Assembly: GCA_004431415.1 (NCBI GenBank)
Contig: QPMI01000063.1
Coordinates: 62,001 to 126,000 of the forward strand
Source of the DNA: Cyanophora paradoxa CCMP329
Taxonomy: Eukaryota > Plantae > Glaucophyta
Length of the DNA: 64,000 nt
Reading direction: 5' to 3'
Part shown: piece by piece, positions 6,001-26,398 of the stretch
Layout: every line of letters begins with the position of its first letter
Position numbering within the stretch: the stretch's first letter is position 1
Notes under the pieces: generated by a model
What the model was told of the DNA's origin: nothing
Databases searched by the model: none
What the model saw: the letters and a program-made list of their open reading frames with translations, nothing else
Position numbers and translations under genes: made by a program

Positions 6001-9000
6001 CTATGTGCCTGCCGTGCCCGAAAGGGTCGTACGAGGACGACGGGGCCTGCCGCGCCTGCGCTACAAACACGATCACCCCCGCGGAAAACATGACGTCCTG
6101 CGAGCTGGTGTGATTTTCGGTCTGTTGCGCGGCTATGGCATTTTGGCGTGACTTGCTCCTTCAGTGTCCGCCCGGATACGTCTCGGCGGCCGATCTCCAG
6201 AACTGCGTTCCGTGCGGAGCAGGTCCGCACGCCTTCCACATTGTGCCGAGCAGCTGCAGGCAAGGAAGTTGTACTGAAGCCACTCCAGGAACGTACCGCG
6301 CCGAGAACATGACCGACTGCACGCCCGTCCCTTCCGCTCCGTGGCACTCGCCGGCTCGCCCACCTGGACCGTCTGCGATGCGGGCTACGTGGCCGACGGG
6401 CCTCGGGCGATCTGCATTCCCTGCCCCGCGGGTGGATATTTAAATTTTTTTCCTTCTGCACCAACGGAACTCACACCTTCTCGCAGGCTCGTACCAGGTC
6501 AACGACTCCTGCATCTTGTGCGAAACGAACTGGGTCGCAGCGACGCCCGGCCTCGACCGCTGCGAGCAGTGCGACAACGGGACCGTCGCGGCCGCCAACG
6601 GCCAGTTCTGCGTCCGTGCGCACGACATCCTCCCACGATGGAACTCGCATCTTGTTTCTCACTCTGACTCTGCTATTCTCAGCGTGCCTGCCGGGGTTCT
6701 ACCGGCACGAGGGCATGGTCGAGTGCGAGCGGGCGCCCCGCGGGGCGATCGCGGCGGCGGGCAGCCGCAACTACACGATGTGCGACCGGGGGAGCCGCCC
6801 CGACCTCGAGGCCACCTCGTGCGACGTGTGCGAGCGGGGCACGATCGAGGTGGGCTGGGAGTGCATCGACTGCATCGGTTCGCATTGCTTGCGGCTTTGG
6901 CTGCTTTGAGCAGTCGTAGGTCTGAAAGGATCGCAGGACTGATGTACGCCCCCGACCGCGGCATGACGAGCTGCAAGACCTGGTGGGCTCCGCCCCGTAG
7001 GCGTATGCATCCGCCGTCGACCGCGCCGCTTACTTGCGGTGCACAGTGCGCGGGGGACGATCCCCACGCCGGACAGGCAAGGGTGCACCCCGTGCTCGCG
7101 GGGGTACTACAGGGCGGAGAACATGACGTCCTGCGAGCAGGCGCGCCGTTTCCTTTCTCGCTCGACGTCAATGCCGCGACCACAGATTAATGTTGAAATT
7201 CGCCGCAGTGTCCGCACGGCCAATACACGAGCGCACAGGGCTTCTGGTACTGCAATCTTTGGTGCGGCGACACCGCACTGTAAAACGCAGCGAGCTTCGA
7301 GCCAATCGGTCCGCTGACCTCGCGCCGGCAGCCCGCGCGGGACGGAGAGCTCCCTCAACCGGGCCGAGTGCGACCTCTGCCGGGCCGGTTTCTACGAGCG
7401 GAACAGCACCTGCGTGCCCTGCCAGGTGCTCATCGCGCCATGGTTTCTGCTTGTTTCCGGCGCCAAGGCCGACGGTGGCGTCAGGACGGATTCTGGAGCG
7501 CGCTGGGGGCGTCCGAGTGCACACCGTGCACGCCGGGCTACATCAGCAACGACGACCGGTCGGGCTGCCTTCCCTGCCGCGGGGGACCTTCCACGGGGAC
7601 TCGGTGCACCATCTGTTGTCCCAGCTCCAACATATGCCTGCTTGTGCTCATTCACTCGGCTTTGCAGAACGCATGCTTGCCATGTAAAACTGTGCGCTTG
7701 GCACCGGACGCCAGTAGCTTTACGTTCGCTGACAGCTTACCCGCCACGCATTACTAGGGCCTCTGGTCTCCTCTGGCGACGAGCGAGAGCTGCCTGGAGC
7801 CGCCCTGGGGCCACTTCGCGTCCAACGACAGCACGCGCTACATCCCGTGCGACGCCGGCTTCTTCGAGTGGCTCCCGAAGAACACCTCCCGCCCACGCAA
7901 GTGCCTGCAGGTGCGCTATCTCTGCGTACATTTCCTGCGAACGCAAAGTGCGCGTTCTCATTTCTGGTGCAGTGTCCGCTTGGGACGTACGCGCCAAAGG
8001 AGGGGACGTTCGAGCACTGCACGAATTGCTCGCTGGGCTTCTACTCTGCACCCGATTTCCGTTCATGCCTGCCGTGCCCGCTGGTGGGTTGCCGCGCGAT
8101 TCTTCTGCCTCTGCGCAGAGCACTGACGCTGGTTGTTGTTGCAGGGGTCCTACAGGGACTCACACTTCGCCACATGCCAGCCGTGCCCGATCACGACCGC
8201 CGCGCGCCGGGAAGGCATGGTGCAGTGCGAGCCGTGGTGCGCTTTGGCAGATATATATATACCCGCAAGCTTAAGCGTCACGCGTCACTGTGTGCCGACG
8301 CCGCGCCTCCTCCCTCAGTCCCCGGGGAAGGTGCCGAGGAAGGACAGGGCCGAATGTGTCGGTGCGAGCTCTCGAATTCTCGCAGTTTCAATCACACAAC
8401 CAGCGCATTTTCGTCGTTCGCATCGTTCCTAATGCGGCACGACAGACTGCGAAGGCGGGTACATGCCTATTAACGGGACGTGCGTACGATGCGATTCTGT
8501 GTCGACCGCATTGCCTGGAGGTTCGATGCCGAACTTTTTCTGCATTCGCCCTCTGCGCGCGCTGACGTTGGTTGTCAGACCCGACCTGCACGCCCTGCCC
8601 CGAGGGCTTCGTCGCCAACGACCTCGGGACGGAGTGCATCGCCTGCAACGTGTCGATGTACCGGCCGGCGGGCGCCATGTCCTGCATCAAGTGCCCCCGC
8701 AACACCATCTCCGGCAACGGTAGCCCGGGCTGCACGCAATGCGCTGGCGGAGAAGTCGTGCGTGGTTTCATTTCACAATTGCGATCATTGTTCTTCTCTT
8801 ATTTGACCTTCGCCGAATGCGGTTGCAGTCGGACGAAACCCAAGCGTTCTGCAGCCCCTGCGCTCGTGGGCAGTACCGCAACGTGTCCATGGATTACTGC
8901 ACGCCGTGGTCGGTGCCGCTTGCACAAAAGCAGTTGCGCTGGTGGCTCATGCAGGCGTCGCGCACGCAGCCCGCCGGGCTTTATGGCGGGCGAAAATGGC

Positions 9001-12000
9001 GCGTCCGCCTGCCTCCCTTGTGCGGCCACGCAGCTCTGTCCGGGTCCGACCTGTCCCGCGTGCACTCGAGCTCGTTCCGCTTGCCGTTCTGACAACAATT
9101 TGCAGTCGGCACGGCCGACCCTGTCGAGATACCCCGCTACCAGGACGTCATCGGCGGGATCAAAGACCTCGTCGCTGGCGCCCGAATAGTGCCGCAGCGC
9201 AGGCGAGTGCGATTGCTCGGCTGCGCTGAGCCGACCAAGTTTAGTGACGGCCGCCGCAGGGGTCTGCTCCAGGACGCCATCGACGACTTCGTCGTGGAAA
9301 CCTTCGTGGACGACACCGTCAACGCGACCATCACCCGCCCCGAGATCGAGGACGAGTCCGTCGCGTTCGCGCAGCTCTACCGCATAATCACGTACATCGC
9401 GGCCGCCGTCGGCGCCCTCGTGCTCGTCGCCGCGATCGCCATCTGCGTCCACCTGAAGACCGGATCCGGAGACCGGGCTGCGGAGCGCTACCGCCGGGTA
9501 CGTATACGTGCCCCCCTTGACACTACGACGGATAAATCCGCGCGCGGCCGGGCTCTTACAGCGGTGTCCGATCAGGTCGCCAAGATCAACGTCCTGTACA
9601 GTGAGGTGGTCGACCAGACGCTGCAGGAGAACGAGGACCTGGAGGCGGCGTTGGACGTTCTCCGCGCCGGCGGCGCCGTTTTCGCGATCGCCGGCCTGGG
9701 CTTCTTCGTCATTGCGGCGGCGTTCGTCGTCCTCCAGTACGCGATCGCGAACTACACGGTCCTCCAGACGCTCCTCGGCGGTGCGTCCCCCTCGGCGGGC
9801 AGCATCACGGGCGTCTTCGCCGTCCGGGCGGCGTTCGTGGGATACCCGGGATCCTGCATCATGCGAGGCTCTGCGGATCCCTCCGGCTTTGCGAACGCGT
9901 CGGATGCATCGTGGGTCGGCGCGACGGCCTCTTTCCGTGGCATCGCGCCGGTGGACGACGATCCGAATTCACTCCCGCAGCTGTCCGCGTTCTACAACGA
10001 GACACAGCGGGCGTGCATGTGCGCCCCGTTTGTAAAGAATGACGCGCATTGAACTTCGAATGACTCGGAGCCTGCAGAGTGGACTGGATGTGCCAGAACT
10101 GCACGCTGTCGGCCGCGACGAACGTCTCCGTCGAGCTGCGCCTCGCCTCCCGCATGGCGCTCGCGGTCGCCGTCACGTACAAGATCGAGGTGCGACGACG
10201 ACGTCGGCTCGCGCTGTAAGCGCCTCGCCGCGCTGACGGCACCTGGTCACGGGCGGCAGGTGCCGACAAACTTGACCGTCGAGGGGCGCGTCCGCACCCG
10301 ATCGGACGCCACGCTCGGCGTGTTCCGCGGCCTCCGGCCCGTGGTCGCGCCCCTCTCCCTCGTCCCGCTCCACTTCGAGGTGCCAAATTAAACTCGCGCT
10401 CCTGTTCTTGCGTCCTTCTCCCGATCTGTGCCTCACGGTGAACGCAGGACGCGCGCGACGGGAGCCCGCGCTACGACACGTCGCTCTGGCCGTCTTCAAA
10501 CCGGGGCGCAGAGGCGGAGGAGGAGTCCTTCGTGCGTAAAACTCGCTCTTTGATCATCTCGTTGGGTTGTCGCCGCCGTGACGCACGCCGGCAGAGCCTG
10601 TGCTCGTTGACGCTCCCGCTGTCGCACCCGTCCTGCGCGGGCGAGTCGGTCGCGTTTCGCGCGGCGTTCGAGCTGAGCGACGTCCACGTCAGGGTGCCCC
10701 GCCCGCACGGACGGCCGCTTGTCCGATTGCGAAAGCTGACGCCAGTCGCGCGCAGGTCAGCCGCGTGGAGCGCGCCTCGCTCCTGGACATGTTTGCCGAT
10801 CTGTCGGCCCTCACGGGAAGCGCCATCAACATCGGCTGCCAGCTGCTCCTCGCCTTCGTCGCCCTCCTGCAGCTCATGCAGGCGAGCCGAAGCGATCTCT
10901 TAAATCTGTCGCATTACGTTCGTCGTCTCAAACCGGCTCGCCTCGCAGCGGTACCCGAGGTTCGCGAAGTACGTGGCGCGCCCCGAGACGCTGCAGATGG
11001 CGCTCGTCGACGCGAAGAGCTCGCGCACCGGCTCGGCCTCCGACGTCTCGAGCGAGCACCTCAGCGTCCTCGCCCCGGGGCACGGACCGTCGTCATCGCC
11101 GACGAGGGCGACGCGTTCGGGCAGCACCCGCGAGGGCGGCGGCGCTCATGGGTCGCCCGTGCGAGCGCCTTCCTCCGGCGCGGCAGCGCCTCCTCCGCGC
11201 ACGACGAGCCGCACCAGGCGGGGCCCCGCCGCGCGGCGTGGGCACGGCGCTGGCACTCCCGCCCGCCGACACGGGCGCGAGTCTGCCGACGCTGGCCCAG
11301 TTCCTGGACACGCAGGGCCTCGGCGAGGCGCGCCCGGCCGAGCGGGTCGGGGCGCTGGCGCCGCTGTGGGTCGGCGCCGCCAACCGCTCAGCAGAGCCGC
11401 CTCCGCCGGATTCCATGCCGAGCGCGAGCCCGGCGAACAGCGCACTCCGCGACGCGGCGGCGGCTCTGGGCACGGCCCTCGAGGTTCCGTTACCTACTCC
11501 GGCGCCCCCGCCCCGCCTGCCGCCGCTCGCTTCGAGTCCGGCTCTGGCGGAGAGCAGAAGCAACTGCGACCTCTGGCGGCGATTGCGGCTCGCCCGGGCA
11601 CTTTCGACCCGGCGCCGCGCTCTTTGGCCGGCGCGCTCGCGAGGCAGAAGGCGCTGGACGACTCGGCCCGGCCCTCCCCCGCCGCGGACCTCGCCTCTGT
11701 GTCCGCGTCGCGATCGTCGATCGCGAGCTCGGCTGCGATGGCCGCGGCGGGCGCCGCGCCCCGCAGCGCGGCCTCCGCGCTTGGGCTCCAGCTCCCGCCA
11801 GCCGCAGTACACGACGAGGTCGCCGCCGGTCTGGCGGAGCTACACGGTCCCGGGGCGCCGGCCGGGGCGCCGGGCCCAGCCGACGGAGAGGCCCAAGCGC
11901 TGCGGCCCGCAGCCGATTCGACGTCCATGGCCAAGCAGGCCGGCCAGCAGGGGCGGGCGCCCTCTCCCGCCGCCCAGAGGCCGGCCGACGCCGCCGCCTC

Positions 12001-12502
12001 GTCGCGCTCCAGCGCAGTCGCGATCGCGAGCGTAAAGGCGAGCTCCGCTTCGCCGCCGCCCTCCTTCGTCGGCAACCCAACGTCGTCGCCTCCCTCCGAC
12101 GGCGGCGGCGCCCGCGGGCCGCGTTCGGCGCCAGCCGCTCGGGAGCAGCCGGCGCAGTCGCATGCGCAGGCTCCTCCGCCGAGCGCCTCCGGCCGCAATC
12201 GCGGCTCCGGCTCTGGATCCGTTGCCGCATCGTCGCTCGCGATCGAGAGCGCGGGCTCAGGCCACGCCCCGTCGTCGGCCCCCGCCTCGGACCCCCGCTG
12301 GGATCGGGGCGGGTCGCGAGTCGGGCGGCATGCGCAGCCCGAGCCGGAAGGCACAGCGCGCGCGAAGTCGAGCGCGCGGGGCGGGGCGACCGGGCTGGAT
12401 TTGGGGCTCGCCGTCCCGGACGGATTCGAAGAAGTCGAAGCCGGTGGAGCGCTGTCCGCGAAGAAGCCGCACGACCGCTACGGCGACTTCACCTCCATAT
12501 AA
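1..12502 (+). CDS. Giant multi-exon cysteine-rich membrane protein, copy 1 (5' end outside window): LamG-like remnant, long CxxC/GCC2-GCC3 (ephrin-receptor-like) repeats, three hydrophobic helices, Ala/Pro/Ser-rich tail
   Basis: Short introns splice in frame (e.g. 156-232, 3111-3184, 5817-5880, 7141-7208, 10882-10948). Exons encode RLWSGTRTDEQV (LamG end), repeated C-x2-C-P-x-G-(T/Y/F) units (CLPCPAGTWS, CTACPLGSYS, CTPCPEGFV) and hydrophobic segments IITYIAAAVGALVLVAAIAICV, VFAIAGLGFFVIAAAFVVL and LSALTGSAINIGCQLLLAFVALL. Stop TAA at 12500-12502. Several 1-nt homopolymer indels interrupt the frame. Confidence 0.85.
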
Positions 12503-13252
12503 TGCGTAAATATTTATTTCTATCATAGTATAATCTTAATCTTTTTTTCGAGAGACTTCGGTGGGGCGAACCCCCGTAGGTAGTGATATTAAGGATGAAA
12601 TCTTAATCTGATGCTGTCTTTCATCAGGTATTTCATGTTAGGAGATGCGTGATTTTTGTTTGCCTTTCCTAGTTAGCTCAGGGCAAAAATCACAGGCGCG
12701 GCGCTCGCAATTGCAATCGATTCGATTTTAGTGGGCAGATTGCACGTGCGCAACGATCGTCCATGTTCAGGCGCACTGCTTCTAGTCAGTTAAAGTCGTG
12801 TAGAGGCGCTAAATGGCGTTCAATTTGACAATCATTGTTTAGTCATTGAGCTTGAGCCTGTGAAGGAGAGGTCTGGAGACACAGTGGAGAGCCTTATTGA
12901 GCTAAAGCCTTTTCATCGTGAAGAGGGGGGGAGGGGGGGGGGGAAGGGAGGGAGTGAACGGCTTTTCAGAGTATTAATTGTTTTCGAATCTTGAATTTGT
13001 TTTTTGGTGAATTACCACCATCACTGCCGCAGTGCGGCGGGGGGGGCATGCAACCGGTCTCTCTCTGCACCGCCCAGGACCCCCGTGTCGCCTGTTCCGG
13101 TGTCACCCGCCCTTCCTCCTGCTTCGCTGCAGCTGCCCTCTCTTCGGCGCCGGCAGCGATCTTCATCACCTGCTTGTGGCCCTTCCCCTAGGCCTACTTC
13201 CGGCCCCTCCTCGGCTCTCTCCTCGCCTCTTCCTTCCCGTAGGCCTCCGCCG
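1138..13252 (+). repeat. ~12.1-kb direct segmental duplication; partner 28595-40722
   Basis: Identity starts at CGACCCTGGATTCGTG (1138/28595) and ends at GTAGGCCTCCGCCG (13252/40722). It includes introns and 3' flank. Differences are mostly homopolymer indels plus one diverged patch. Confidence 0.95.
12550..12592 (+). repeat. Short hairpin motif GAGAGACT(T/A)CGGTGGGGCGAACCCCCGTAGGTAGTGATATTAA; also at 40019-40061 and 41360-41403
   Basis: Three copies, each with a GGGG-CGAA-CCCC stem-loop followed by GTAGT. The third copy has unrelated flanks, so the motif is discrete. It resembles a rolling-circle transposon terminus (inference). Confidence 0.6.
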
Positions 13253-13450
13253 ATAAGCCTTTTGATAGAGGCTAGAAAGGAGAAGGCTGGGAAAGTTAAC
13301 AGGGAACTCAAAAAGCTCACCATAGCAGGGACACAGAAACTTTCAGAAGTGAATAGCCAGAGATGGTATAATGACTTTCAGACTACTAAGGAGTCATATA
13401 CAGCTCCTAAACCTCAAAGAACACTAAGAGAAAGGACCAAAACTAGCTAG
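13253..13450 (+). pseudogene. 5'-truncated remnant of an island ORF (ISLLIEARKEKAGK...RERTKTS*)
   Basis: Purine-rich open frame starts at the junction with no start codon of its own; fused by chance to GC-rich host DNA in ORF 13004..13450. Confidence 0.5.
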
Positions 13451-13678
13451 TTTGCTAGGCAAAAACTCGTTTTTTCCAAATATATGTATGACTGATATAC
13501 ATATATGCATATGATATACACATAGTCTTGTAGATCTTATCAAGCGCTTCACAGCGATATGCAGAACGTTGCGTTTTGATGATCTGGTGATGAGATATAA
13601 CAGTTTGAAGATGCAAAAGTCACTTGCCATAGTAGACTTGGTGAAACACTAGCCCAGGAGTCGACTTGGTGGTAAGCC

Positions 13679-13749
13679 GTTTTTGGCTCAGAGAATAGAG
13701 CGCTTGATTTCTGACTCAAAACTACGCGGTTCAAATCCGCTCGGGAACC
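13679..13749 (+). tRNA. Degenerate tRNA (pseudo-tRNA; anticodon TCT/Arg or CTG/Gln ambiguous)
   Basis: Acceptor GTTTTTG/CGGGAAC (three G-T pairs), D arm GCTC-AGAGAATA-GAGC, anticodon stem TTGA/TCAA with 8-nt loop TTTCTGAC, T arm GCGG-TTCAAAT-CCGC. Positions 8-9 are missing. Confidence 0.6.
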
Positions 13750-14387
13750 TTTACTTCGTTCGCCGTGAAACTTGAAAAGTAAAAAAAAAAACGCGGTTTT
13801 TTCTAGATTAATGCTGTACCCGTCTAGAAAATCAATATTAACGTTTGCTACGATATCTCAACACCAACTTATCAAATCGATGCGCTTAAAACGTCATAAA
13901 ATCGAGCATTTCAAGGCGGTCACAGCGCTTATGAGCCATATCGGAATTTCACTAACTGTAACTCCAAATCGCGATGAAACCGATTTTGAATTTTGATTAT
14001 AAATTCGATTAAAATCCATTAAACGTGAGTTTTTAATATAGATCACTAGCAAGTTATCAAATCGATGCACTGACGGTCGAATATAATCACATATATCATA
14101 CATAACAATAACTTGCAATCACATATACGAATCTCAATGTGTATAGATCGCTATTACGATTAAAGCGAGTTTTGAAATTCAAAATTAATTCGATTAAATT
14201 CGATTATAACTCAAAAATCGCGATTTATAACCATATACTTATCGTTTCGATCAACTTATGATATCGAATATTCAACTATATTATATTGCTTCGATAACTG
14301 TGATCCCATCTATGATCCCATCAATCTAACACTGCATTTAGTAAGCATCTCCCCTTGATTCCCCCTATTATATTATATTTATATTTA

Positions 14388-14825
14388 AGTGGACTCAAGG
14401 TTGACTCATATTAATCGTAAAAGTAGTAAAAGTATATGGATTTTGTTACGAATTCAATGCAAGGGTTGACTAAGTGGGTTGAGTTGACTCAAATTTCACA
14501 GGAAATATTTGGGACCAAAAGTTTTCTAAAAAGGATTTCAAAAAATGTGTCAACTCCCCCCACTTAGTCAACCCTGACCATAAACAGTAAGGATTTGAGC
14601 TAACATGTATCACAAAGTGAACATTTTGAGTCCACTTAGAAGATCCACTTTTGAAATCAAAGTTGATTTTGCTTGAAATTTCAAAGTTGATCTAAAAGTG
14701 AGTCCACCCTGATTGATTATGGTAACAAAGTTGACTAAGTTGACTAAGTTGAGTCATCTTAAGAAATTCAAGGAGACTAAGAGTTCAAAATGTTTATGAA
14801 AAGTGAGTCAACTTAGACCACTTAT
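14388..14825. promoter_or_regulatory. Iteron/origin-like cluster 1 (GTTGACT / AGTCAAC / GAGTC repeats in convergent orientation)
   Basis: Many direct and inverted copies around AT-rich spacers; perfect 16-bp inverted pair GGGTTGACTAAGTGGG (14463-14478) / CCCACTTAGTCAACCC (14559-14574). Function inferred. Confidence 0.55.
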
Positions 14826-15100
14826 GATAACAAAGTTAAATATTTAATTGATTTAATCGGAAAAGAACATGATTTAATCGAATTTATTGATATAATTCCG
14901 ATTAGATTCATTTAGAATTCAATTAAAATCAATCGAAGTTATTGATATAATTCCGATTAACTACAATTAAGATACAATATCGATTAATCGAGTTTATCGA
15001 TATAACATCGATTAAATTAATTGAAATTGCATATAAAAATATGAAAATTCATGTGAAAATTCAAATAAATTAATCGATTTTATTGATATAACATCGAATC

Positions 15101-15173
15101 ACACATATGAATATTCATATTTTAATCCTGAGGCGGAACGCCGAGGGATTAAAATATGAATATTCATATGTGT
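15101..15173. other. Perfect 28-bp-arm hairpin 1 followed by GTCAAC (putative att/terminus site)
   Basis: ACACATATGAATATTCATATTTTAATCC (15101-15128) is the exact reverse complement of 15146-15173; inner GGCG-GAA-CGCC mini-hairpin. Confidence 0.85.
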
Positions 15174-15664
15174 CAACTCTCTTCATCAATTGCATACAAT
15201 GATGTCCCAGATACTCTACCCCAAAATGTAGAGGATCCTCAACGAATTCGCTTGTATGCTCCTGTTTCCCAGCAACCTTTCATTCAGTTCTTCAATGAAA
15301 TAACAGTTACACTTCTTAACTCTGTGGTTCCTGAGGGATTCCCAAATGAGAGAGTGGTTTATAATAATCAAGTTCCCATGGCTTTACAATCTCTCTGTCG
15401 TCCTGCAAACAATCAAATCGGTCATTATTACTTGTATTTCGTCCAACCTCACTTGCATTTCGGTCGGGTTATTGCTCTGTTGGAAATGGGGGAGCTGCTT
15501 CATATGATCTGCATGTTACTGATCTTGGAACCTATCGAATTCTGATTGTTGGAGCAAGAACAGATATTGCTGCTGTGTCTGCTCTTCGTGGGTATAATCC
15601 CAATGACATTTTGAATACAGCATTTTATTCCGAGCCAGATATTATAGACGACCCCACCCCATAA
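15156..15664 (+). CDS. Virus-type fibre-associated protein A (~169 aa after restoring one G near 15466); paralog of the C-terminal half of the next gene
   Basis: Adding one G to CGGGTT continues HFGRGYCSVGNGGAASYDLHVTDLGTYRILIVGARTDIAA...PTP* (TAA 15662-15664). This aligns with YDNFGIAY...FGIYKCILYAERTDAIA of gene B. Confidence 0.65.
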
Positions 15665-15687
15665 AAGATATATCTGTTTAATGTAAA

Positions 15688-16514
15688 ATGGCTGCCCCAG
15701 TAGAGCGAATTATTACACCCCAACTCTCATTAGCAGCACCTGCGAATCACGTTTTGCAGCATGCTACCTTTGATGATGTAGAAGGTCTCCAATCGACAGA
15801 AGTACAACCTACCATGAATACATTTGGTTCCACCCATAAACTGAGATTGCAGGAACTCAGATGTGATAAAAATAATGGAATAGTTAAGACAACGAAACTC
15901 CTTGTCACAAATGCAAACTTTTCTGCCCATTATGGAGACCCAGACAGTTATGGTGATCCTCTGTCTACTTATTCTTTTGAATCTCGGTCGGGAGCTATTA
16001 ACTGCAAAACGGGGGAGCATATATTGGTGATGGTCTTCGGGTTGGTGGAGCTGTTGGTGCGCCTCTTTTCGTAAATGATCAACCCAATCCCATTGATCCA
16101 AACACCAGAATTCGCACCTATGTCCCCAGTATGAATGCACCATATATTATCAAGATCTTCCCAATTGTTGTGAATGAACAGACATCAGTAGTTGATTCTC
16201 TTGTTGAAATTGGTGACCACTACAAGGTGGTCGTGGATATTCCACCAGATGTTTATGCTGTCTGTCAAGTAGAGGGTGGAACCCCAAATATTGCAGTTGT
16301 GATCACCCCATATGACAATTTCGGAATTGCTTATCATGGAGTGAATTTCGGTCTTGAAGATTACCAGTTCTTGGTGAGAGCCACCAGGTTTGGTATCTAC
16401 AAATGCATTCTCTATGCTGAGAGAACCGATGCTATTGCAAAACAGAATACATATGCAGAATATTACGGCACAAATCGCTACTTCCCCATTTTCGGGCAGG
16501 ATACTGCTCCATAG
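15688..16514 (+). CDS. Virus-type fibre-like protein B (~275 aa; ORFs 15688..16074 and 16131..16514 joined by one missing G in the run 16011-16015)
   Basis: The restored frame reads SRSGAINCKTGGAYIGDGLRVGGAVG, like the GAL-x2-GG-x2-IG-x2-L-x-VGG fibre repeat of phage and giant-virus proteins. It runs with no stop into MNAPY..., and the C-terminus has a P-x-Y...ITP...YAERxD motif seen in phage tail-fibre-associated domains. Confidence 0.7.
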
Positions 16515-16539
16515 AAATCTCAGGTATATATAGAGAGGG

Positions 16540-16812
16540 ATGGATGATAAAACAAAGAAATTCATAGAATCTGCAATGATGGTTCATGGTGATGCTAAAT
16601 TCGATTATACTGAGACAGTGTATAAGAAAGCACAAGAGAAGGTCTCTGTTAGATGCCTTAAATGCAACAAGATCCTGCAAACCTACCCATTTAATCATGT
16701 AAGGGGCAGTGGATGCAGAGAATGCAACAAGAAATCCTCTCATGCATATAGAAAAAAGACGACATCAGGAATTGTGATAGATGATAAACCAGTGGTACTG
16801 TACTTTGATTAG
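16540..16812 (+). CDS. Zinc-ribbon protein, DUF723/CapR-like repeat
   Basis: FIESAMMVHGDAKFDYTETVY...KVSVRCLKC...NHVRGSGCREC matches the F-I-x2-A-x2-VHG-x-K-x-DY...V-x-I-x-C...H-x2-G-x-GC-x2-C repeat common in phage/NCLDV endonuclease-associated proteins. No nuclease domain here. Confidence 0.75.
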   Translation: MDDKTKKFIESAMMVHGDAKFDYTETVYKKAQEKVSVRCLKCNKILQTYPFNHVRGSGCRECNKKSSHAYRKKTTSGIVIDDKPVVLYFD

Positions 16813-16958
16813 ATCTTTGAGAGAGAGATGAGGATCTTGCCCCATTTTCCCTTTGTGATTATGCATGTATCAAAACAGTTTGGACAGGTCTTATGGTAAT
16901 GCAGCAGGATGATATCCACCAACTCATAAGGTAGCACTCTTGCTAAGATGGTTCGCAT
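16809..16958 (-). CDS. Small 49-aa ORF with F-box-like and CxxC motifs (not in ORF track)
   Basis: MRTILARVLPYELVDIILLHYHKTCPNCFDTCIITKGKWGKILISLSKI*. It fills the gap exactly, its stop overlaps the convergent gene's stop (TTAG 16809-16812), and it is divergent from speD across 40 bp. Confidence 0.5.
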   Translation of the reverse strand: MRTILARVLPYELVDIILLHYHKTCPNCFDTCIITKGKWGKILISLSKI

Positions 16959-16998
16959 TCTACCAATCGCGTTTTTAATTTTTCTAAATTATTCATAA

Positions 16999-17400
16999 AT
17001 GAATACTCATCGAGGCTTCCATGTGATGCTGGATTACAAATTCAGAACCCAATTAGCAGTAGGAATGGAGGACTTGGAGACAACAACCAGGTGGTTAATG
17101 CAGTTCTTGCAAACTATTATTCAAGAGCAAGGTATTCGAGTAGTTCACAAGCATTGCGAGATTTTCGATGGTGGTATTTCTCCTCCTGGTTTTGCAATGG
17201 TTCTTCTGCTGGATGAGAGCCACTGCACTGCTCATTGTTACTCAAATGAAGGTATGTTGGCGATTGATATATTCAGTTGTGGATTAGAAGCAGAGAGAAA
17301 AACCACGAGAGTATCTCATGAGATAGATGAGAGAATAACAGGTGTGTTTTCAGGGTTGGAGAAATCGGAGAAACATAGAGTATTGCGATTTCCGAGTTAG
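16999..17400 (+). CDS. speD: S-adenosylmethionine decarboxylase proenzyme, prokaryotic class 1 (pyruvoyl-dependent)
   Basis: GFHVMLDY...GFAMVLLLDESHCTAHCY...MLAIDIFSCG: E-S-H self-cleavage motif and DIFSCG; 133 aa, intronless. Confidence 0.88.
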   Translation: MNTHRGFHVMLDYKFRTQLAVGMEDLETTTRWLMQFLQTIIQEQGIRVVHKHCEIFDGGISPPGFAMVLLLDESHCTAHCYSNEGMLAIDIFSCGLEAERKTTRVSHEIDERITGVFSGLEKSEKHRVLRFPS

Positions 17401-17450
17401 TTGACACTGAGAAATTCAGAATTTCAGATGGGCTTACTGAAAATGGTGTA

Positions 17451-17665
17451 GTAGGCACTTTAAAATCGAAGTAGGCACTTTTTAATTGAAGTTAGGCACT
17501 TTTAATTGACGTTAGGCACTTAGGCACCTTTTCTGGAAATTCTCTATAAAAACTAAAATCAACGTTTTGAAAAACACAAGTTGATGTATTTGGGACTTCT
17601 TTTTAATTCTCGATTAAGAAGTGCCTAACCGCCTAAACCGCCTACCAAAGATGCCTACTTCGATT
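17451..17665. promoter_or_regulatory. Iteron/origin-like cluster 2 (TAGGCAC direct repeats facing inverted GCCTA repeats)
   Basis: TAGGCACTT near 17452, 17472, 17493 and 17513 (20-21-bp period) plus TAGGCAC at 17521; AT-rich gap; inverted AAGTGCCTAA/CCGCCTA/ATGCCTACTTCG at 17619-17662. Confidence 0.55.
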
Positions 17666-17981
17666 GATCGATCGGAGACCATGCAACTCTGTGACAATTT
17701 TTCGAAGAGAAAATGCCCATCCCCAATCTTCTCAATTGTTTAATTGGAGACCATGCAACTCTGTGACACTTTTTCAATGCAAAAATGTACATCAGCAATC
17801 TCATCGATTGTTTAATTGGACATAATGCAGTACCGATATATTCCAATAGAAAATCCCGCAATCTAATCGATTGTTTAATTGGAGATAATGCAACTCTGTG
17901 ACACTTTTTGGGTGCAAAAATGTACATCCGCAATCCATCGATTGTTTAATTGGACATAATGCAACTCTGTGACACTTTTTG
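17661..17981. repeat. ~72-bp tandem repeat, ~4.6 copies
   Basis: Units start at 17661, 17733, 17805, 17868 and 17939 (CGATTGTTTAATTGGA...ATGCAACTCTGTGACACTTTTT). Confidence 0.85.
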
Positions 17982-18300
17982 CGTTTTTCGATACAGAATG
18001 GGCGGTGGTCTACTTCAATACCAAAGAGATATATCGAGTTTATGCGAATTTATGCGAATTTATGCGAATTAATCGCGATTATATCGTTCTTTAAGTAGTT
18101 TAATGTTAATCAATCGAAGTTATATATGTAATCGACAAAGAACATATTATATCGATATAATATCGATTGAATCAATCGTGAATATGCATTAAATTAAACG
18201 CGTTTATCATTTTTAATACAAAGTTTGCATTATTTTATACAAAGTTTGCATAAAAAGTTAAAGAAATTAATCGATAAATATGTATTTTAGTATTAAATTA

Positions 18301-18395
18301 ACACATATTGAAAAACGAATTTAAATCCAGAGTGAATCGAGATCGCGAAGCGATCGAGATGAACGAGGGATTTAAATTCGTTTTTCAATATGTGT
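18301..18395. other. Perfect 28-bp-arm hairpin 2 followed by GTCAAC; right boundary of island
   Basis: ACACATATTGAAAAACGAATTTAAATCC (18301-18328) is the exact reverse complement of 18368-18395; inner GATCGC-GAA-GCGATC. Confidence 0.85.
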
Positions 18396-18610
18396 CAACG
18401 TCGACTCGACGACCGTTACGACCCCGAAACCCGGACCCAAGAGGTTTGGGGGTACATACAACTCACGCCAGCTGTCTTGCAAGCTGCATGCGCCGCTGCA
18501 CTGCGGCTACAGTGCTGGAATCAGCAGCTGGATCCGATGATCTAGATTCTAGAAGCCCAACTGCTGCCCAAGCCCCAGAGTCCAGACTCTGCCAGGCTGT
18601 AGGCGGCGGT
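18394..18610 (+). repeat. ~200-bp host repeat, direct copy at 24982-25179
   Basis: GTCAACGTCGACTCGACGACCGTTACG...GTAGGCGGCGGT in both; the second copy lacks two short internal segments. Confidence 0.9.
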
Positions 18611-21600
18611 CACTAGTAAAAAGGGGTCCGAACTGATCGAATTGCGACCTAATTACGACCTAATTTATTAGATCGGAGTTCGGTCGGCCCGGCGATCTAA
18701 TACGGATCTAATTGCAATTAGGTCGGAGTTAGGTCGGAGCTTGCGCCGCCTATAGCTTATAGCTTATCCCTATAGAGCTATAGAGCTTAGCCCTTAGGCG
18801 TCCCTTATAATTAGAGCTAGCCCTAGGCGAGCGCTAGCCCGCCCGGCCCCGGCCCCCCCGCCCCGCCCCTAGCTATAGAGCTCATGCTCATCATATATAT
18901 AGACATCTATATGAGAAGCACTGTTCTATATCTAAACATGCAGCGGCGAGTGGGCAGAGGCCTAGGAGCGCCACGGCCCAGAGGGTTCTCCAGGAGATAT
19001 TCCGGGCCCGCGCTCCTCGCAGGACGCGGCGCCGGACGCCGCGCTCGGCGTGCCGCGCGGAGCTGCCCGCCGCCGCCGCCGGGCCGAGAAGCCCGTCCTA
19101 GGAGATAATGTCAGAATAAGGTCAGACGAGGGGTGTTCGGATGGGGGCGATCTGAAGGTGTGCAGCAGCGCGTATTGAAGAGTCATCTAAGATCATTTAT
19201 AAGGTTTAAGAGCGGCGGCGTGGCCTGGCGAGCGCGCACCAGAAAAGCCCGCAGCTCCGCACCAGAAAAGCGCGCACCCAATACGCCCGGAGCTCCTCAG
19301 CCTTTTCGCGTGGGGAGCTCGCCTGCGAGATCTGCGAGTTCCGGGATCGGGGTTAGATGCAGGCTAGTGCGCGGGGAAAGAGAGCGGACCCGCCGCAGCG
19401 ATTCCCGTTGCCCAGCGGCCCGGCAACGGTGCCAGGAAGTCGTCTCTAAAAGTGAGCTGCCGGGCCCTAAACTATGATCATTTAACTCGTATCCCTTTAT
19501 AAACCCCCGTGGTCGGCCGAAAGTCGGGTCTCCCTCCCCTAGGGACCCCTCGAACCTGGGCGAGCTCGGCGACGGGATGGTCGTGGAGCCGAGGAAGGCC
19601 GCCCGCGAGGGGGGAAGGAGCGGCGGAGGACCCGCTCCCGCGCGGCCGTTTCGCGAGCATCTGAGGCGAGGATCACGGCAATGCGCAGCGATTGGGCGGG
19701 AGCGCACGGGTGCGGCGTGCGGATCGGATTGTTTGCACCTTCGAGAGCGCACGACGCACCGCGAAGGCGCAACGCTCTGCAACATCTCTCTGTTCGATCT
19801 TGTTGCAGGCGAGCCGCGCCCTCTGCCGCGCCGCACCCAAGCGCCGACCCCCGCCGCAGTTTCAAGGCCGCGCGGCCGCACGCCGGCCGACCTGTGCGAA
19901 ACAGCGTCGGGTCGGGCTGAGAGCATGCAAGTGGCATTCTTACATCGACGCAAGATCCCTGTGATGTAAAGCGGGGAGCCGCGCCGAGCCTGGGCCCGGA
20001 TGAGCAAGTTCTCCCGAGGTCGGCGCAGCTGGAGAACGCAACGGGAGCTCTCGGGGACCGATCCAGCGCACCAAGCATCCCACGTAGCTCTCGGTACGCT
20101 GCTGGGCGCGAGCGGCCTGCCGCGATGTCGCACTTATCTGGGCGACGTCGCCTACGGCGGCTGCGGCGACGGCGGCGCTCCCCACTTGTCATAGCTAGTG
20201 TCTCCAGTGCATAGCTGCGCTCGCCGCTTGTCTTGCATACCTCAAGCTTGCAGCGAGGTCTTCCCGCTGGGGTACCGATTTTGGCTGGGGTACACAAACC
20301 GCAAATATCGAAGCCCACGCAGCCCGCTTCTGCCTTGCGGCACCCGCGGGCGAGTGGAGCGTGCAGCAGCGATCTCTCTAGTGTTGTGCGCACCTCGTAC
20401 GCGTGCAGGTCGGCAGCGAGAGCGGGCTGCGAGCGGATTTCGTCGAATCAAGTCCGAGGCCCGCCTCCCGCGAGCTGCCGGCCTCTCGGCACACTCGTTG
20501 CTGATCAGGAAGCTCTAGGAAGCGGGCAGCTTCCGCCCGGAGCCCCGAACGGCATTGTCCGCAGCCCGCCAGGTCCAATCCGCGGAACGCGGCTAAACTC
20601 GTGCTCTCGGACGCGCTGCGGTCGCTCTGTGGGCTATTCTTGCTAATCTTCTCACGCAGGAGTGCTTGACGGGCCTGTGCTCTCGCTACCGCCGGGGCCC
20701 GCTCGCCCTCTCTGACTCGCAGCCCCAGATCTTTGCCTGCCTCGAGGCGTGCAGCCCCGCGCGACTTCGCCTCGCGATCCTCGATGATGGTACGCTCTCC
20801 TCCCGGCCGGCCGCTCGCCGGCGCCGGATCCCCGCCGGGGCCCGCTCGCCCTCTCTGACTCGCGGCCGCAGATCTTTGCCTGCCTCGATGCGTGCAGCCC
20901 CGCGCGACTTCGCCTCGCGATCCTTGATGAAGGTACGCTCTCCTCCCGGCCGGCCGCTCGCCGGCGCCGGATCCCCGCCGGGGCCCGCTCGCCCTCTCTG
21001 ACTCGCGGCCCCAGATCTTTGCCTGCCTCGAGGCGTGCAGCCCCGCGCGACTTCGCCTCGCGATCCTCGATGATGGTACGCTCTCCTCCCGGCCGGCCGC
21101 TCGCCGGCGCCCGATCCCCGCCGGGGCCCGCTCGCCCTCTCTGACTCGCGGCCCCAGATCTTTGCCTGCCTCGAGGCGTGCAGCCCCGCGCGACTTCGCC
21201 TCGCGATCCTTGATGAAGGTACGCTCTCCTCCCGGCCGGCCGCTCGCCGGCGCCGGATCCCCGCCGGGGCCCGCTCGCCCTCTCTGACTCGCGGCCCCAG
21301 ATCTTTGCCTGCCTCGAGGCGTGCAGCCCCGCGCGACTTCGCCTCGCGATCCTCGATGATGGTACGCTCTCCTCCCGGCCGGCCGCTCGCCGGCGCCGGA
21401 TCCCCGCCGGGGCCCGCTCGCCCTCTCTGACTCGCGGCCGCAGATCTTTGCCTGCCTCGAGGCGTGCAGCCCCGCGCGACTTCGCCTCGCGATCCTTGAT
21501 GAAGGTACGCTCTCCTCCCGGCCGGCCGCTCGCCGGCGCCGGATCCCCGCCGGGGCCCGCTCGCCCTCTCTGACTCGCGGCCCCAGATCTTTGCCTGCCT

Positions 21601-24600
21601 CGAGGCGTGCAGCCCCGCGCGACTTCGCCTCGCGATCCTTGATGAAGGTACGCTCTCCTCCCGGCCGGCCGCTCGCCGGCGCCCGATCCCCGCCGGGGCC
21701 CGCTCGCCCTTGCTGACTCGCGGCCGCAGATCTTTGCCTGCCTCGAGGCGTGCAGCCCCGCGCAACTTCGCCTCGCGATCCTCGATGATGGTACGCTCTC
21801 CTCCCGGCCGGCCGCTCGCCGGCGCCCGATCCCCGCCGGGGCCCGCTCGCCCTCTCTGACTCGCGGCCCCAGATCTTTGCCTGCCTCGAGGCGTGCAGCC
21901 CCGCGCGACTTCGCCTCGCGATCCTCGATGATGGTACGCTCTCCTCCCGGCCGGCCGCTCGCCGGCGCCGGATCCCCGCCGGGGCCCGCTCGCCCTCTCT
22001 GACTCGCGGCCCCAGATCTTTGCCTGCCTCGAGGCGTGCAGCCCCGCGCGACTTCGCCTCGCGATCCTTGATGAAGGTACGCTCTCCTCCCGGCCGGCCG
22101 CTCGCCGGCGCCGGATCCCCGCCGGGGCCCGCTCGCCCTCTCTGACTCGCGGCCCCAGATCTTTGCCTGCCTCGAGGCGTGCAGCCCCGCGCGACTTCGC
22201 CTCGCGATCCTCGATGATGGTACGCTCTCCTCCCGGCCGGCCGCTCGCCGGCGCCGGATCCCCGCCGGGGCCCGCTCGCCCTCTCTGACTCGCGGCCGCA
22301 GATCTTTGCCTGCCTCGAGGCGTGCAGCCCCGCGCGACTTCGCCTCGCGATCCTTGATGAAGGTACGCTCTCCTCCCGGCCGGCCGCTCGCCGGCGCCGG
22401 ATCCCCGCCGGGGCCCGCTCGCCCTTGCTGACTCGCGGCCCCAGATCTTTGCCTGCCTCGAGGCGTGCAGCCCCGCGCGACTTCGCCTCGCGATCCTTGA
22501 TGAAGGTACGCTCTCCTCCCGGCCGGCCGCTCGCCGGCGCCCGATCCCCGCCGGGGCCCGCTCGCCCTTGCTGACTCGCGGCCGCAGATCTTTGCCTGCC
22601 TCGAGGCGTGCAGCCCCGCGCGACTTCGCCTCGCGATCCTCGATAAAGGTACGCTCTCCTCCCGGCCGGCCGCTCGCCGGCGCCCGATCCCCGCCGAGGC
22701 CCGCGACGCCCTCTCTGACTCGCGGCCGCAGATCTTTGCCTGCCTCGAGGCGTGCAGCCCCGCGCGACTTCGCCTCGCGATCCTCGATAAAGGTACGCTC
22801 TCCTCCCGGCCGGCCGCTCGCCGGCGCCGGATCCCCGCCGGGGCCCGCTCGCCCTCTCTGACTCGCGGCCCCAGATCTTTGCCTGCCTCGAGGCGTGCAG
22901 CCCCGCGCGACTTCGCCTCGCGATCCTCGATGATGGTACGCTCTCCTCCCGGCCGGCCGCTCGCCGGCGCCGGATCCCCGCCGGGGCCCGCTCGCCCTCT
23001 CTGACTCGCGGCCCCAGATCTTTGCCTGCCTCGAGGCGTGCAGCCCCGCGCGACTTCGCCTCGCGATCCTTGATGAAGGTACGCTCTCCTCCCGGCCGGC
23101 CGCTCGCCGGCGCCGGATCCCCGCCGGGGCCCGCTCGCCCTCTCTGACTCGCGGCCCCAGATCTTTGCCTGCCTCGAGGCGTGCAGCCCCGCGCGACTTC
23201 GCCTCGCGATCCTCGATGATGGTACGCTCTCCTCCCGGCCGGCCGCTCGCCGGCGCCCGATCCCCGCCGGGGCCCGCTCGCCCTTGCTGACTCGCGGCCG
23301 CAGATCTTTGCCTGCCTCGAGGCGTGCAGCCCCGCGCGACTTCGCCTCGCGATCCTCGATGATGGTACGCTCTCCTCCCGGCCGGCCGCTCGCCGGCGCC
23401 GGATCCCCGCCGGGGCCCGCTCGCCCTCTCTGACTCGCGGCCCCAGATCTTTGCCTGCCTCGAGGCGTGCAGCCCCGCGCGACTTCGCCTCGCGATCCTC
23501 GATGATGGTACGCTCTCCTCCCGGCCGGCCGCTCGCCGGCGCCGGATCCCCGCCGGGGCCCGCTCGCCCTCTCTGACTCGCGGCCCCAGATCTTTGCCTG
23601 CCTCGAGGCGTGCAGCCCCGCGCGACTTCGCCTCGCGATCCTTGATGAAGGTACGCTCTCCTCCGGCCGGCCGCTCGCCGGCGCCGGATCCCCGCCGGGG
23701 CCCGCTCGCCCTCTCTGACTCGCGGCCCCAGATCTTTGCCTGCCTCGAGGCGTGCAGCCCCGCGCGACTTCGCCTCGCGATCCTCGATGATGGTACGCTC
23801 TCCTCCCGGCCGGCCGCTCGCCGGCGCCGGATCCCCGCCGGGGCCCGCTCGCCCTTGCTGACTCGCGGCCGCAGATCTTTGCCTGCCTCGAGGCGTGCAG
23901 CCCCGCGCGACTTCGCCTCGCGATCCTTGATGAAGGTACGCTCTCCTCCCGGCCGGCCGCTCGCCGGCGCCGGATCCCCGCCGGGGCCCGCTCGCCCTCT
24001 CTGACTCGCGGCCCCAGATCTTTGCCTGCCTCGAGGCGTGCAGCCCCGCGCGACTTCGCCTCGCGATCCTTGATGAAGGTACGCTCTCCTCCCGGCCGGC
24101 CGCTCGCCGGCGCCCGATCCCCGCCGGGGCCCGCTCGCCCTTGCTGACTCGCGGCCGCAGATCTTTGCCTGCCTCGAGGCGTGCAGCCCCGCGCGACTTC
24201 GCCTCGCGATCCTCGATAAAGGTACGCTCTCCTCCCGGCCGGCCGCTCGCCGGCGCCCGATCCCCGCCGAGGCCCGCGACGCCATCTCTGACTCGCGGCC
24301 CCAGATCTTTGCCTGCCTCGAGGCGTGCAGCCCCGCGCGACTTCGCCTCGCGATCCTCGATGATGGTACGCTCTCCTCCCGGCCGGCCGCTCGCCGGCGC
24401 CGGATCCCCGCCGGGGCCCGCTCGCCCTCTCTGACTCGCGGCCCCAGATCTTTGCCTGCCTCGATGCGTGCAGCCCCGCGCGACTTCGCCTCGCGATCCT
24501 CGATGATGGTACGCTCTCCTCCCGGCCGGCCGCTCGCGGGCGCCCGATCCCCGCCGAGGCCCGCGACGCCCTCTCTGAGGGCGGGGGGCGGGGGGCGGGG

Positions 24601-24797
24601 GCGGGCCGGGGCGGCGGGGGAGCGCGGGGCAGCCCCCGGCCGCGGTCAGCGGCGATCAAATTGCGATCTTACTGAGACCTATCTGAATTAGATCGGAGTT
24701 CGATCGCAATTCAGTCCATGTCCCGATTTTATGGTCGGAATTCGATCGGTGGCCGATCAAATATATTAGGTCTCAGTTCAGCCTTTTTTTAAGTTGC
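18611..24797. mobile_element. Putative non-autonomous CACTA (En/Spm)-like element carrying a satellite array
   Basis: Starts CACTAGTAAAAAGGGGTCCGAACTGA exactly where the host repeat is interrupted. Subterminal ATTAGATCGGAGTTCG-type repeats occur at both ends, with a C-rich tract at ~18837-18870 versus a G-rich tract at ~24578-24630. The right end is degenerate (TCAGTTCAGCCTTTTTTT, 24773-24790). No TSD or transposase found. Confidence 0.5.
20689..24578. repeat. 143-bp GC-rich satellite, ~27 copies
   Basis: GGGCCC landmarks end at 20700, 20843, 20986, 21129...; units differ at only about five variable sites. Confidence 0.97.
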
Positions 24798-26398
24798 AGT
24801 CCCCGCAGTGCTGGTGTCTAGAGACTGTGGCCGGTAATTTACCAAAAAAAAACCGCATATTTTATAAAAGGAAGTATTCACGAAAACAAAAGAGCCGACC
24901 TATCGTGATCCACGAAGTACTTCGGTTTTTACCAAAAGGCCTCTTAAGAGGACCAGGGTATCCGGCGTGACGGCTCGCGACGTCAACGTCGACTCGACGA
25001 CCGTTACGACCCCGAAACCCGGACCCAAGAGGTTTGGGGGTAGATACAACTCACGCCAGCTGTCTTGCAAGCTGCATGCGCCGCTGCGCTGCGGCTACAG
25101 TGCTGGAATCAGCAGCTGGATCTAGATTCTAGAAGCCCAAGCCCCAGATTCCAGACTCTGCCAGGCTGTAGGCGGCGGTAGCGCGCGCTGATCATGACTC
25201 TCAGTGAGCATGCGCACATTGCGGCAGCTATAGCTAGCGCTGTGCACAGTACTATCATAGTATAGAGCTAGTGCAAGCGAGCAGCAGCTGCTGAGATAGA
25301 GCAAGCTGCGCAAGCCTATAGCTACACTGTGACAGGCAGCGCAGGAGCCTCGGAGCCAGGCTCGCGCAGTGCGCAGTGCACGTGGGCCGTGGCCGCCTGA
25401 AAGTGTCGCCGTGTCGCCATCGTCGTCGTGTCGCTATCCCCTCCGTGCATGCAGTCACTGAGTCAATTGCAACACATGCATGCGCTAAAGCTTGCCGCGG
25501 CCGGTGTCACCCGGTGATGCCGCAAATTAAAAGCGCATAGTTTGCGGCGTAAGGTGCAGCGGCCCGCACGCGTGCCTCATTACAATAGAAGCGGCAGCTC
25601 ATAATCATGATCAGCCGCAGCTGTAGCATGCGCAGCGCTGGAGCCGGCTGGGCCCCGCACGTTGACGAGAGTATCATGGCGTCGGTTGTGCGTGGGAGCT
25701 GCGCGTGGGTGCTGCCGCAGTCCCAGCCTGCAGCTACCCATGGCTTGCACCTTGATCGCCCCCCCGGTGCGCGCGCGCTCCGAGCTTGAGCACGCCCGGC
25801 CCCTGGCAAGAGCTGGGCCGGCGCCCCAGCCGGCAAGCATGCGCATACACGCGCATGCGTAGCCGCGCTGTGGGGGGAGCAGGCCCTCTTTCACCGATGC
25901 CTGCAGCTGACGCACATGCGCAGCTAGCGCTGCAGAACAGACGAGGGCGTGTACGGAGCTCGAGTGCCTGTGCACTGACACCGTCGAGGATGCTTCTCGA
26001 AGGTGCGCGCAGCGCGGGGCCCTCTTCGGAAGCGCTGCTGCGCTTTGCACGCCCTCGCGATCGCTCCTCAGAGCTTCGAGCTCGTTCGCTGGCCGTTCGA
26101 GCTCGAGGTCTAGATCATTGAATCACTTTTTGGCTATCGTCACGAGCATCCGAGGCCGCTGAGCTCAGCTACGATCTATAGGCTCCTAGCTGCTTTACCG
26201 ATAGGCGATACCGCGCCGGGATGCAATTCGAATCCTATACATTCCCGCCTCCGCAATTCATTCTGGAGCTGCAGGCTAGGGAAGGCCCGACGGTACCGGT
26301 GGACCTCGTCCCCCTCGACGTCTGAGGCGCCAAGAAGGGGAGCTCGGGCTCGCGCACAGCTGCAGCGGGGCTCGGGGGAGATCGACGCGTACGCCGCG

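Follow-up and report, generated by a model that had tools for sequence, protein, structure and literature searches.

We asked what two long hairpins, alike in structure and different in sequence, are doing in the genome of the glaucophyte Cyanophora paradoxa CCMP329. Both lie in a stretch of 64,000 nucleotides of contig QPMI01000063.1 (positions 62,001 to 126,000 of the forward strand), which was analysed as a whole and is called the window here. They are found in an AT-rich island of 36.5% G+C, with 66% G+C to its left and 63% to its right (61.5% for the window overall). We identify these hairpins, H1 and H2, as the conserved outer ends of a multi-copy, AT-rich, virus-like DNA family. The island itself is a mosaic in which a terminal hairpin closes each of at least two fragments. 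The features concerned are as follows, in positions of the window.

13253 to 18397, plus strand: AT-rich island, 36.5% GC, between GC-rich repeats; edges from the GC profile and the comparison of copies
15101 to 15173, plus strand: hairpin H1, 73 nt, with a 28-bp perfect stem, a 4x4 internal loop TGAG/CGAG and a GCG-GAA-CGC tip
15174 to 15175, plus strand: CA closing the H1-type end; A15175 pairs with T15099
18301 to 18395, plus strand: hairpin H2, 95 nt, with a 28-bp perfect stem, an AGAG/CGAG loop and a longer imperfect tip ending GATCGC-GAA-GCGATC
18396 to 18397, plus strand: CA closing the H2-type end; T18299 pairs with A18397, the last base common to copies

The stems of both hairpins contain an outer box, ACACATAT, and an inner box, TTWAATCC/GGATTWAA. 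A conserved asymmetric internal loop is present in both, with WGAG unpaired on the left (TGAG in H1, AGAG in H2) and CGAG on the right. In the DNA fold of each, a short stem of G+C pairs is capped by a GAA loop at the apex. The original prediction, made from the letters of this DNA, had described these perfect 28-bp arms, shared boxes, loops and GAA tips, and the sequence and a repeat search bear it out; the four unpaired bases CAAC directly follow both hairpins, and are taken in by the end at 18399 given there. The tip of H2 includes the heptamer GCGAAGC, and GCGNAGC is called an extraordinarily stable DNA mini-hairpin in a 2026 review (PMC13037366). In both hairpins the terminal A finds its partner in a T two bases to the left of the stem, giving a 30-nt arm with one mismatch, at its second position (C-C in H1, A-C in H2). 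As this A is the last base shared between copies, the end of the element is the end of the 30-nt arm. The same hairpins are present in short-read contigs of other public runs, indicating that they are no assembly artefacts.

DNA folding energies were -30.8 kcal/mol for H1 and -34.8 kcal/mol for H2, with z-scores of -12.2 and -10.3 on the plus strand and of -12.7 and -9.8 on the minus strand (200 shuffles, none of which folded as well on either strand); RNA folding gave z-scores of -12.0 and -12.7. The longest perfect stem in 20 shuffles of the island was 8 to 11 bp, as against the 28 bp observed, and H1 and H2 are the sole perfect stems of at least 16 bp with a loop of at most 60 nt in the 64-kb window. 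Their left arms differ at 8 of 28 positions, seven in the middle dodecamer and one in the inner box. At all eight the pair has changed on both sides, with none changed on one side and none broken, and both stems are purely Watson-Crick (no G-T pair among 56). In a compensation test, 3 of 500 shuffles equalled the observed pattern, and slid registers gave 23 to 52% pairing. The stem structure has been kept through compensatory change between H1 and H2, as had been predicted; the further statement that the middle 12 bases differ and still pair is right in that every difference is paired, and overstated in its count, seven of the twelve. A covariance model built from the two sites, a step the prediction had envisaged, recovered H1 and H2 and gave no third member in the window, where the next score after four self-matches of the hairpins was 18.5 bits. 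An imperfect palindrome of CGACCTAATT-type units, with arms of about 20 nt that are 80-90% complementary, lies in the GC-richer flank at 18635-18746 and matches the hairpin model weakly, at 18.5 bits.

We compared the island with assembled contigs from public runs labelled as the same organism (X1, X2, X4, X15 and X18), in which summed depth is not a copy number. On 12300-19300 run X2 yielded 789 contigs, 437 of them at 99% identity or more and 352 at 95-99%. Their summed word depth was 1,100 to 27,000 over nearly all of the island, dropping to about 230 and to 72 in two bins of about 230 nt, and 38 to 175 outside it, save for an element-like stretch at 12534-12767; summed contig depth in the island was 10 to 300 times that of the flanks. 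The high depth and the many diverged contigs indicate a multi-copy family.

The family stops at the outer edge of the hairpin. On 18120-18560, depth in X2, X4 and X1 ran in the thousands (60 to 800 for X1) up to the bin 18390-18404, and then fell to 0-150; X4 has no contig on 18405-18560, which is a blank and no sign of an empty site. At least three H2-type contigs, two from X4 (only 70% alike) and a third from X1, continue past 18397 into other GC-rich sequence. The window's own flank is carried by an X1 contig whose first base is 18368 (18398 minus 30), exactly 30 bases inside the element. This start fits a branch point in a 31-mer graph, since the overlap there is 30 bases, and leaves 30 element-side letters as against the 31 required to call a bridge. 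At the H1 end, a contig of 1740 nt from X18 follows the window over 14616-15174 before passing into unlike sequence, and a 949-nt contig of X15 matches only up to 15173. The sequence common to copies ends in ...ATATGTGTCA (GTGTCA), 2 nt after the stem, at 18397 for H2 and at 15173-15175 for H1. At least five different flanks follow this shared end, counting the window's own two, and the first flank base is A (both hairpins of the window), C (X4), C (X1) or G (X18), with T in none of the five. On the left, the border of the hairpin is bridged by high-depth contigs, such as one of X2 spanning 18236-18329. The original prediction had made an association with recombination junctions its own test, and this association is what we find, as the copies in other contigs part from the window precisely where the palindrome has its outer edge.

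We additionally identified variants of the hairpin in the same organism. One has the same stems in the same orientation, with a tip of (CGAAGCG) repeats. A third left arm, seen by itself over 30 letters, keeps ACACATAT and TTAAA (five of the eight inner-box letters) around another dodecamer. Among the matches listed, the loop has one orientation, with WGAG to the left and CGAG to the right, in all three of H1, H2 and the (CGAAGCG)n variant.

To the left of each hairpin, the two sites share about 250-330 nt of homologous AT-rich sequence containing short repeats, as seen in a blastn match of 18048-18173 to 14872-14989 and in a pairwise alignment. Tandem Repeats Finder (TRF) resolved arrays within and beyond these regions.

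14400 to 14830, no strand: iteron-like GTTGAC(TAAGT) direct and inverted repeats, with the highest summed depth in the island
14863 to 15100, plus strand: subterminal 55-bp repeat array left of H1, of AATCGA..TTATTGATATAA units (TRF 14874-15040, period 55, 3 copies)
17440 to 18006, no strand: iteron-like arrays, of TAGGCAC 20-nt repeats at 17452-17521 (inverted copies at about 17610-17665) and a 72-nt repeat in 4.6 copies at 17660-17980
18018 to 18300, plus strand: subterminal region left of H2, homologous to that left of H1, with CGAATTTATG in 3.6 copies and a 21-nt repeat in 2 (TRF)

The inner, iteron-like arrays differ between the sites, with GTTGAC(TAAGT) and 55-bp repeats before H1, and TAGGCAC 20-mers and 72-bp repeats before H2. 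The homologous left sides with their repeat arrays indicate that the hairpin belongs to a larger end and is no independent insert. Within the first array, GTTGAC units form a 35-nt inverted repeat (14462-14575; 86% complementary, 44-nt spacer), whose right arm includes ATGTGTCAACTC, 12 bases identical to those across the H1 end.

The right edge of the island, 18397, is the last base common among copies, and the GC profile rises from 27% to 59% at H2. Beyond it lies host sequence.

18398 to 18610, plus strand: GC-rich flank of host sequence, about 90% identical to 24982-25179

The likeness of this flank to 24982-25179 begins at GTCAAC (18394), and so overlaps the last four bases of the element, GTCA. 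The left edge, 13252/13253, was set by comparison with the paralogous host repeat 39471-40722. Neither an empty site nor a target duplication could be reconstructed from these two paralogues, the continuations of the left and right flanks not being adjacent. A 213-nt contig of X2 is identical to the right flank of H2 from 18394 (18394-18487), with leftward sequence unlike the hairpin, and represents either a hairpin-free paralogue or an empty allele of the insertion site.

Four plus-strand genes lie between H1 and H2, and the gene content of the island is virus-like and AT-rich.

15156 to 15665, plus strand: gene A, paralogous to gene B over the C-terminal two thirds of the latter, with its own frame broken near 15465
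15688 to 16514, plus strand: gene B, about 276 aa if whole, with its frame broken in the G-run 16010-16015
16540 to 16812, plus strand: zinc-finger protein gene, 90 aa, of the treble-clef type as in phage endonucleases
16999 to 17400, plus strand: S-adenosylmethionine decarboxylase (AdoMetDC)-like gene, 133 aa, of the small prokaryote/virus type

In a three-frame reading, the first eight codons of gene A come from the H1 arm and CAAC, for which reason the gene seems cut, and is probably 5'-truncated, at the H1 junction; no independent contig bridging this junction was found among the matches listed. Gene B has two homologues among 5.8 billion protein clusters, of 278 aa (P0055) and 274 aa (P0056), 69-70% identical to it. 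Both read straight through the point at which gene B, lacking one G, is broken. We found none of its relatives in IMG/VR, GTDB genomes, a phage collection or the sequences of the PDB, and its AlphaFold model (mean pLDDT 32) was too poor for use. In the contigs of X2, a G that the window lacks is present at 15465 in gene A in 198 of 198 units of summed depth, and at 16010 in gene B in only 2562 of 7150, so that frameshifted copies of gene B are numerous. The missing G in these G-runs could reflect real decay or a homopolymer error of assembly.

The zinc-finger protein matches Pfam DUF4379 below the cut-off (E = 2.6e-4) and PHROG endonuclease families at E = 1.6e-10 and 3.1e-8. The AdoMetDC-like protein matches Pfam PF02675 above the cut-off (E = 6e-11) and PHROG 3125, and has 54 homologues, the best 53-60% identical. 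Its relatives are encoded at 80 metagenome loci, none of which has a perfect stem of at least 16 bp, and the closest of them (L007) resembles a densely coding GC-rich prokaryote; this gene therefore gives the hairpins no context. The ESM Atlas offered weak leads to unnamed viral clusters.

The reading that we favour, tentatively and at somewhat less than even probability, is that H1 and H2 are the terminal palindromes of two diverged element copies and the predicted folded site, as a hairpin or cruciform, of a strand-specific nuclease of the element's own, most likely an HUH enzyme of the rolling-circle or rolling-hairpin type, which would nick the DNA or end a round of replication there. HUH enzymes act in this way at the ends of Helitrons and of IS200/IS605 elements, at oriT and at the terminal resolution sites of parvoviruses. 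In the scheme that we infer, the outer box with its closing bases, ACACATAT...ATATGTGT-CA, would be the cleavage site, cut after CA, and the inner box with the asymmetric WGAG/CGAG loop would be bound by the protein and set the orientation. Folding would start from the G+C mini-hairpin with its GAA tip, the middle 12 bp could change freely as long as they pair, and a linear product with ...GTGTCA at its end would become linked to chromosomal DNA. For H2, the flanking sequence suggests that this joining used a 4-base GTCA microhomology with the host paralogue. By analogy, the hairpins appear to behave like the hairpin-defined ends of HUH-driven elements. Published work describes the 3' palindrome of Helraiser as a terminator that kept about 90% of activity after a pairing-preserving swap of its stem (PMC4778049), and compensatory changes in the terminal hairpins of Helitron2 (PMC3627910).

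Several observations weigh against this reading. The window contains no nuclease, Rep or integrase gene, and of the seven open reading frames of the island one, the AdoMetDC-like gene, lies above the Pfam cut-off, with the zinc finger below it. A 3' end in CA is also a hallmark of DDE and retroviral-type integrases, and the four bases GTCA shared with the host paralogue are compatible with any linear end having been joined passively. Helitron hairpins have much shorter stems, and neither a CTRR end nor a T at the start of the flanks is seen here. Among the matches listed only right-hand ends are seen, with no left end found, and the three variants show no flip/flop, contrary to classical symmetric rolling-hairpin replication. 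The evidence consists of contigs and not of raw reads, in which a free end, a nick or a circular form could not show. Finally, the perfect pairing could stem from templated copying of arms and not from selection. The pairing pattern is no proof of selection on a folded substrate, because copying one arm of a terminal palindrome from the other at each replication gives the same pattern. Of the folded-substrate selection that the original prediction proposed, the compensatory pairing and the position at junctions thus stand, and selection itself does not follow from them.

A broader proposal, which we regard as possible and rather doubtful, is that the hairpins are telomere-like ends of an undescribed class of small, AT-rich, virus-like protist replicon. 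Such a replicon would combine lineage-specific iteron arrays with a conserved nick site beside a hairpin constrained in structure alone, would multiply by rolling-hairpin or rolling-circle replication, and would have seeded many end-anchored fragments in the nuclear genome.

The alternative that survives best, although unlikely, is a linear double-stranded replicon with fold-back or covalently closed hairpin ends, as in parvoviruses, poxviruses or chloroviruses, whose arms would be renewed by copying and whose fragments would be captured passively by host end-joining. The palindrome does reach the very end, its terminal A paired with T, and subterminal tandem arrays adjoin the hairpin, as they do at poxvirus ends. 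The island also holds two head-to-tail fragments, each with its right end intact and its left side broken, and the junction at H2 has the 4-base overlap with the host paralogue. The lack of wobble pairs or mismatches in 56 stem pairs would be explained without selection. However, transfer of the hairpin predicts both orientations of the asymmetric centre, which has one orientation in all three variants among the matches listed, and full copying of arms would erase the mismatch at the second position (C-C in H1, A-C in H2). No long inverted repeat flanks the palindrome, which is therefore no telomere fusion junction, and the free ends that such a replicon would have cannot show in runs available as contigs.

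It is decidedly unlikely that each hairpin is the fold-back terminal inverted repeat of an element mobilised by an integrase of the DDE or retroviral type, in the manner of Polinton-like viruses and virophages, with 3' ends processed at CA. CA does follow the stem in both copies as the last shared sequence, and AT-rich, virus-like islands in GC-rich protist genomes are typical of integrated virophages and Polinton-like viruses. However, the island contains no integrase, capsid or polymerase gene, and neither a second, inverted end nor a target duplication is visible. To our knowledge, a self-complementary end of 73-95 nt is no described feature of these viruses.

The two remaining explanations fit poorly. 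A role at the RNA level, as termination and polyadenylation hairpins of the giant-virus type or as small-RNA precursors, is highly improbable. The RNA folds are very stable (z of about -12), and there are sub-threshold matches to microRNA precursors, the best at 39.2 bits against a gathering threshold of 89; no Rfam match reached its gathering threshold, however, and matches of this kind reflect any long hairpin. The terminator rule of giant viruses, which the original prediction had named as the alternative after Mimivirus, does not apply here, as the 3' flanks of none of the four genes fold better than shuffles (z of -1.1 to +1.9) and neither hairpin closely follows a stop codon, H2 lying about 900 nt past the nearest and H1 overlapping the start of gene A. 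The lack of G-U among 56 pairs and the equal folding of both strands fit a constraint on DNA, and the hairpins coincide with DNA junctions. Least probable of all are small independent fold-back transposons, of the miniature inverted-repeat (MITE) kind, landed in AT-rich DNA, for which the perfect 28-bp inverted repeats, the high summed depth on the stems and one X1 contig with GC-rich sequence just 4 nt left of an H2-type hairpin would speak, and against which no target duplication flanks the hairpins, the left 250-330 nt are homologous between sites with their border bridged at high depth, and the right side alone varies.

The surroundings of the island, of 62-66% G+C, look eukaryotic and repeat-rich, and few long open reading frames of the window have family matches. 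A GC-rich repeat of about 6 kb without a Pfam match occurs in three copies that are 95-99% alike, two direct (7216-13252 and 34683-40722) and one inverted (58740-64000). The second and third copies face each other over 18 kb (40.7-58.7 kb) of lower G+C (55-60%) with a strong positive GC skew, and may represent a very large composite element or a segmental inversion. Long G-runs or GGGA-type tracts recur in and beside this repeat (12900-12960, 40390-40420, 40870-40905 and 58520-58650). Two kb to the right of the island lies a 143-bp satellite of 71-74% G+C, with about 27 units that are 97% alike at 20689-24578 (diverged units at 20546-24707), which yields long spurious open reading frames on the minus strand.

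At the left of the island, a tRNA-like stretch followed by an A-run (13630-13795) resembles a short interspersed element (SINE) or a decayed tRNA gene. Its tRNA-like part, 13679-13749, scored 21.6 bits with the Rfam tRNA model, below threshold, and ARAGORN found no tRNA. To the left of 13862, contigs from three runs no longer match the window, and 13253-13861 may be a separate piece of the mosaic. The counts of sigma-70 promoter-like and of terminator-like sites equal those of shuffles.

We searched for the hairpin beyond this genome. The pattern ACACATAT-N12-TTWAATCC...GGATTWAA-N12-ATATGTGT had no match in JGI metagenome contigs, in GTDB (185,579 prokaryote genomes) or in IMG/VR, so that the scan of viral metagenomes put forward in the original prediction, made here with this pattern, produced no relative. 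Looser patterns in IMG/VR matched five loci and one locus, all without a hairpin and therefore by chance. The island had no match in a plasmid collection. We found no described element of this kind in the literature, where an account specific to this organism may exist in print.

If the favoured reading, of a folded site for an HUH-type nuclease, is true, these ends would be a natural case of eukaryotic DNA mobility or replication that reads shape and not sequence. The signature is unusually clean, with 28 perfect pairs, eight compensated changes and conserved outer and inner boxes, and with the hairpin model the ends of an abundant repeat family can be annotated precisely in this genome. Since its genes have almost no public relatives (two for gene B), the family may stand for protist viruses or plasmids of a group so far unsampled. 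The end sequence and its variants form a ready set of substrates for finding and assaying the nuclease responsible.

Among known systems, integron attC sites are likewise folded single-strand sites in which structure counts over sequence and unpaired bases set the choice of strand. Here, in contrast, the junction leaves both arms together on one side, the setting is eukaryotic and no tyrosine recombinase was found; the RYYYAAC/GTTRRRY boxes, stated to be absent in the original prediction, had no match in a regular-expression scan of both hairpins with 20-nt flanks. The telomeres of poxviruses and chloroviruses resemble these ends in their AT-rich, incompletely paired terminal hairpin with tandem repeats inward. 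Those hairpins are the axis of kilobase inverted terminal repeats and occur as flip and flop, whereas the hairpins here measure 73-95 nt and have one orientation. IS200/IS605 elements, REP sequences with TnpA(REP) and conjugative oriT (an inverted repeat plus nic) share an HUH enzyme that reads a hairpin fold and cleaves the DNA a few bases beyond it, the hairpins varying between families while the structure stays (compare PMC3333891 and PMC8266576); they are, however, prokaryotic, with short imperfect hairpins.

Parvoviruses offer an imperfect palindrome at the extreme end of the DNA, in which an asymmetric bubble is conserved and whose outer border is fixed, as a terminal resolution site would make it. 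Integrated parvovirus copies would end at the palindrome, and a palindrome at the end of the molecule is what we find at one end, in integrated copies (18397; 15175 in H1). They differ from the present family in that flip/flop is absent from the three variants listed, no NS1/Rep gene of the HUH-SF3 kind and no capsid gene was found in the window, the host is a GC-rich eukaryote of unicellular type, the subterminal repeat arrays are long and one end is observed.

Finally, the ends differ from those of Helitrons in their stem, of 28-30 bp against about 8-19 bp, and in their setting of AT-rich, virus-like, apparently intron-less genes and long iteron arrays, with no RepHel gene in the island of the window. 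Canonical Helitron1 elements, as described in PMC4778049 and PMC3627910, have a 3' CTRR, a short hairpin about 10-12 nt upstream of it, and insert between host A and T. The present ends are not of that type, as the shared end is GTCA and not CTRR, the stem lies 2 nt from it and none of five flanks starts with T. Helitron2 is defined by asymmetric terminal inverted repeats and by a 5' hairpin 0-2 bp from a T end; on the minus strand, the one end observed here reads T-G-hairpin, which would fit the second of these features. In Helitrons, as in the present family, the stopping point of a eukaryotic mobile DNA is marked, at one end, by a palindrome, and pairing outweighs the sequence of the stem (PMC4778049, PMC3627910). 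One-ended transposition of Helitrons gives one constant end with variable other ends, and in this too the ends described here are alike.

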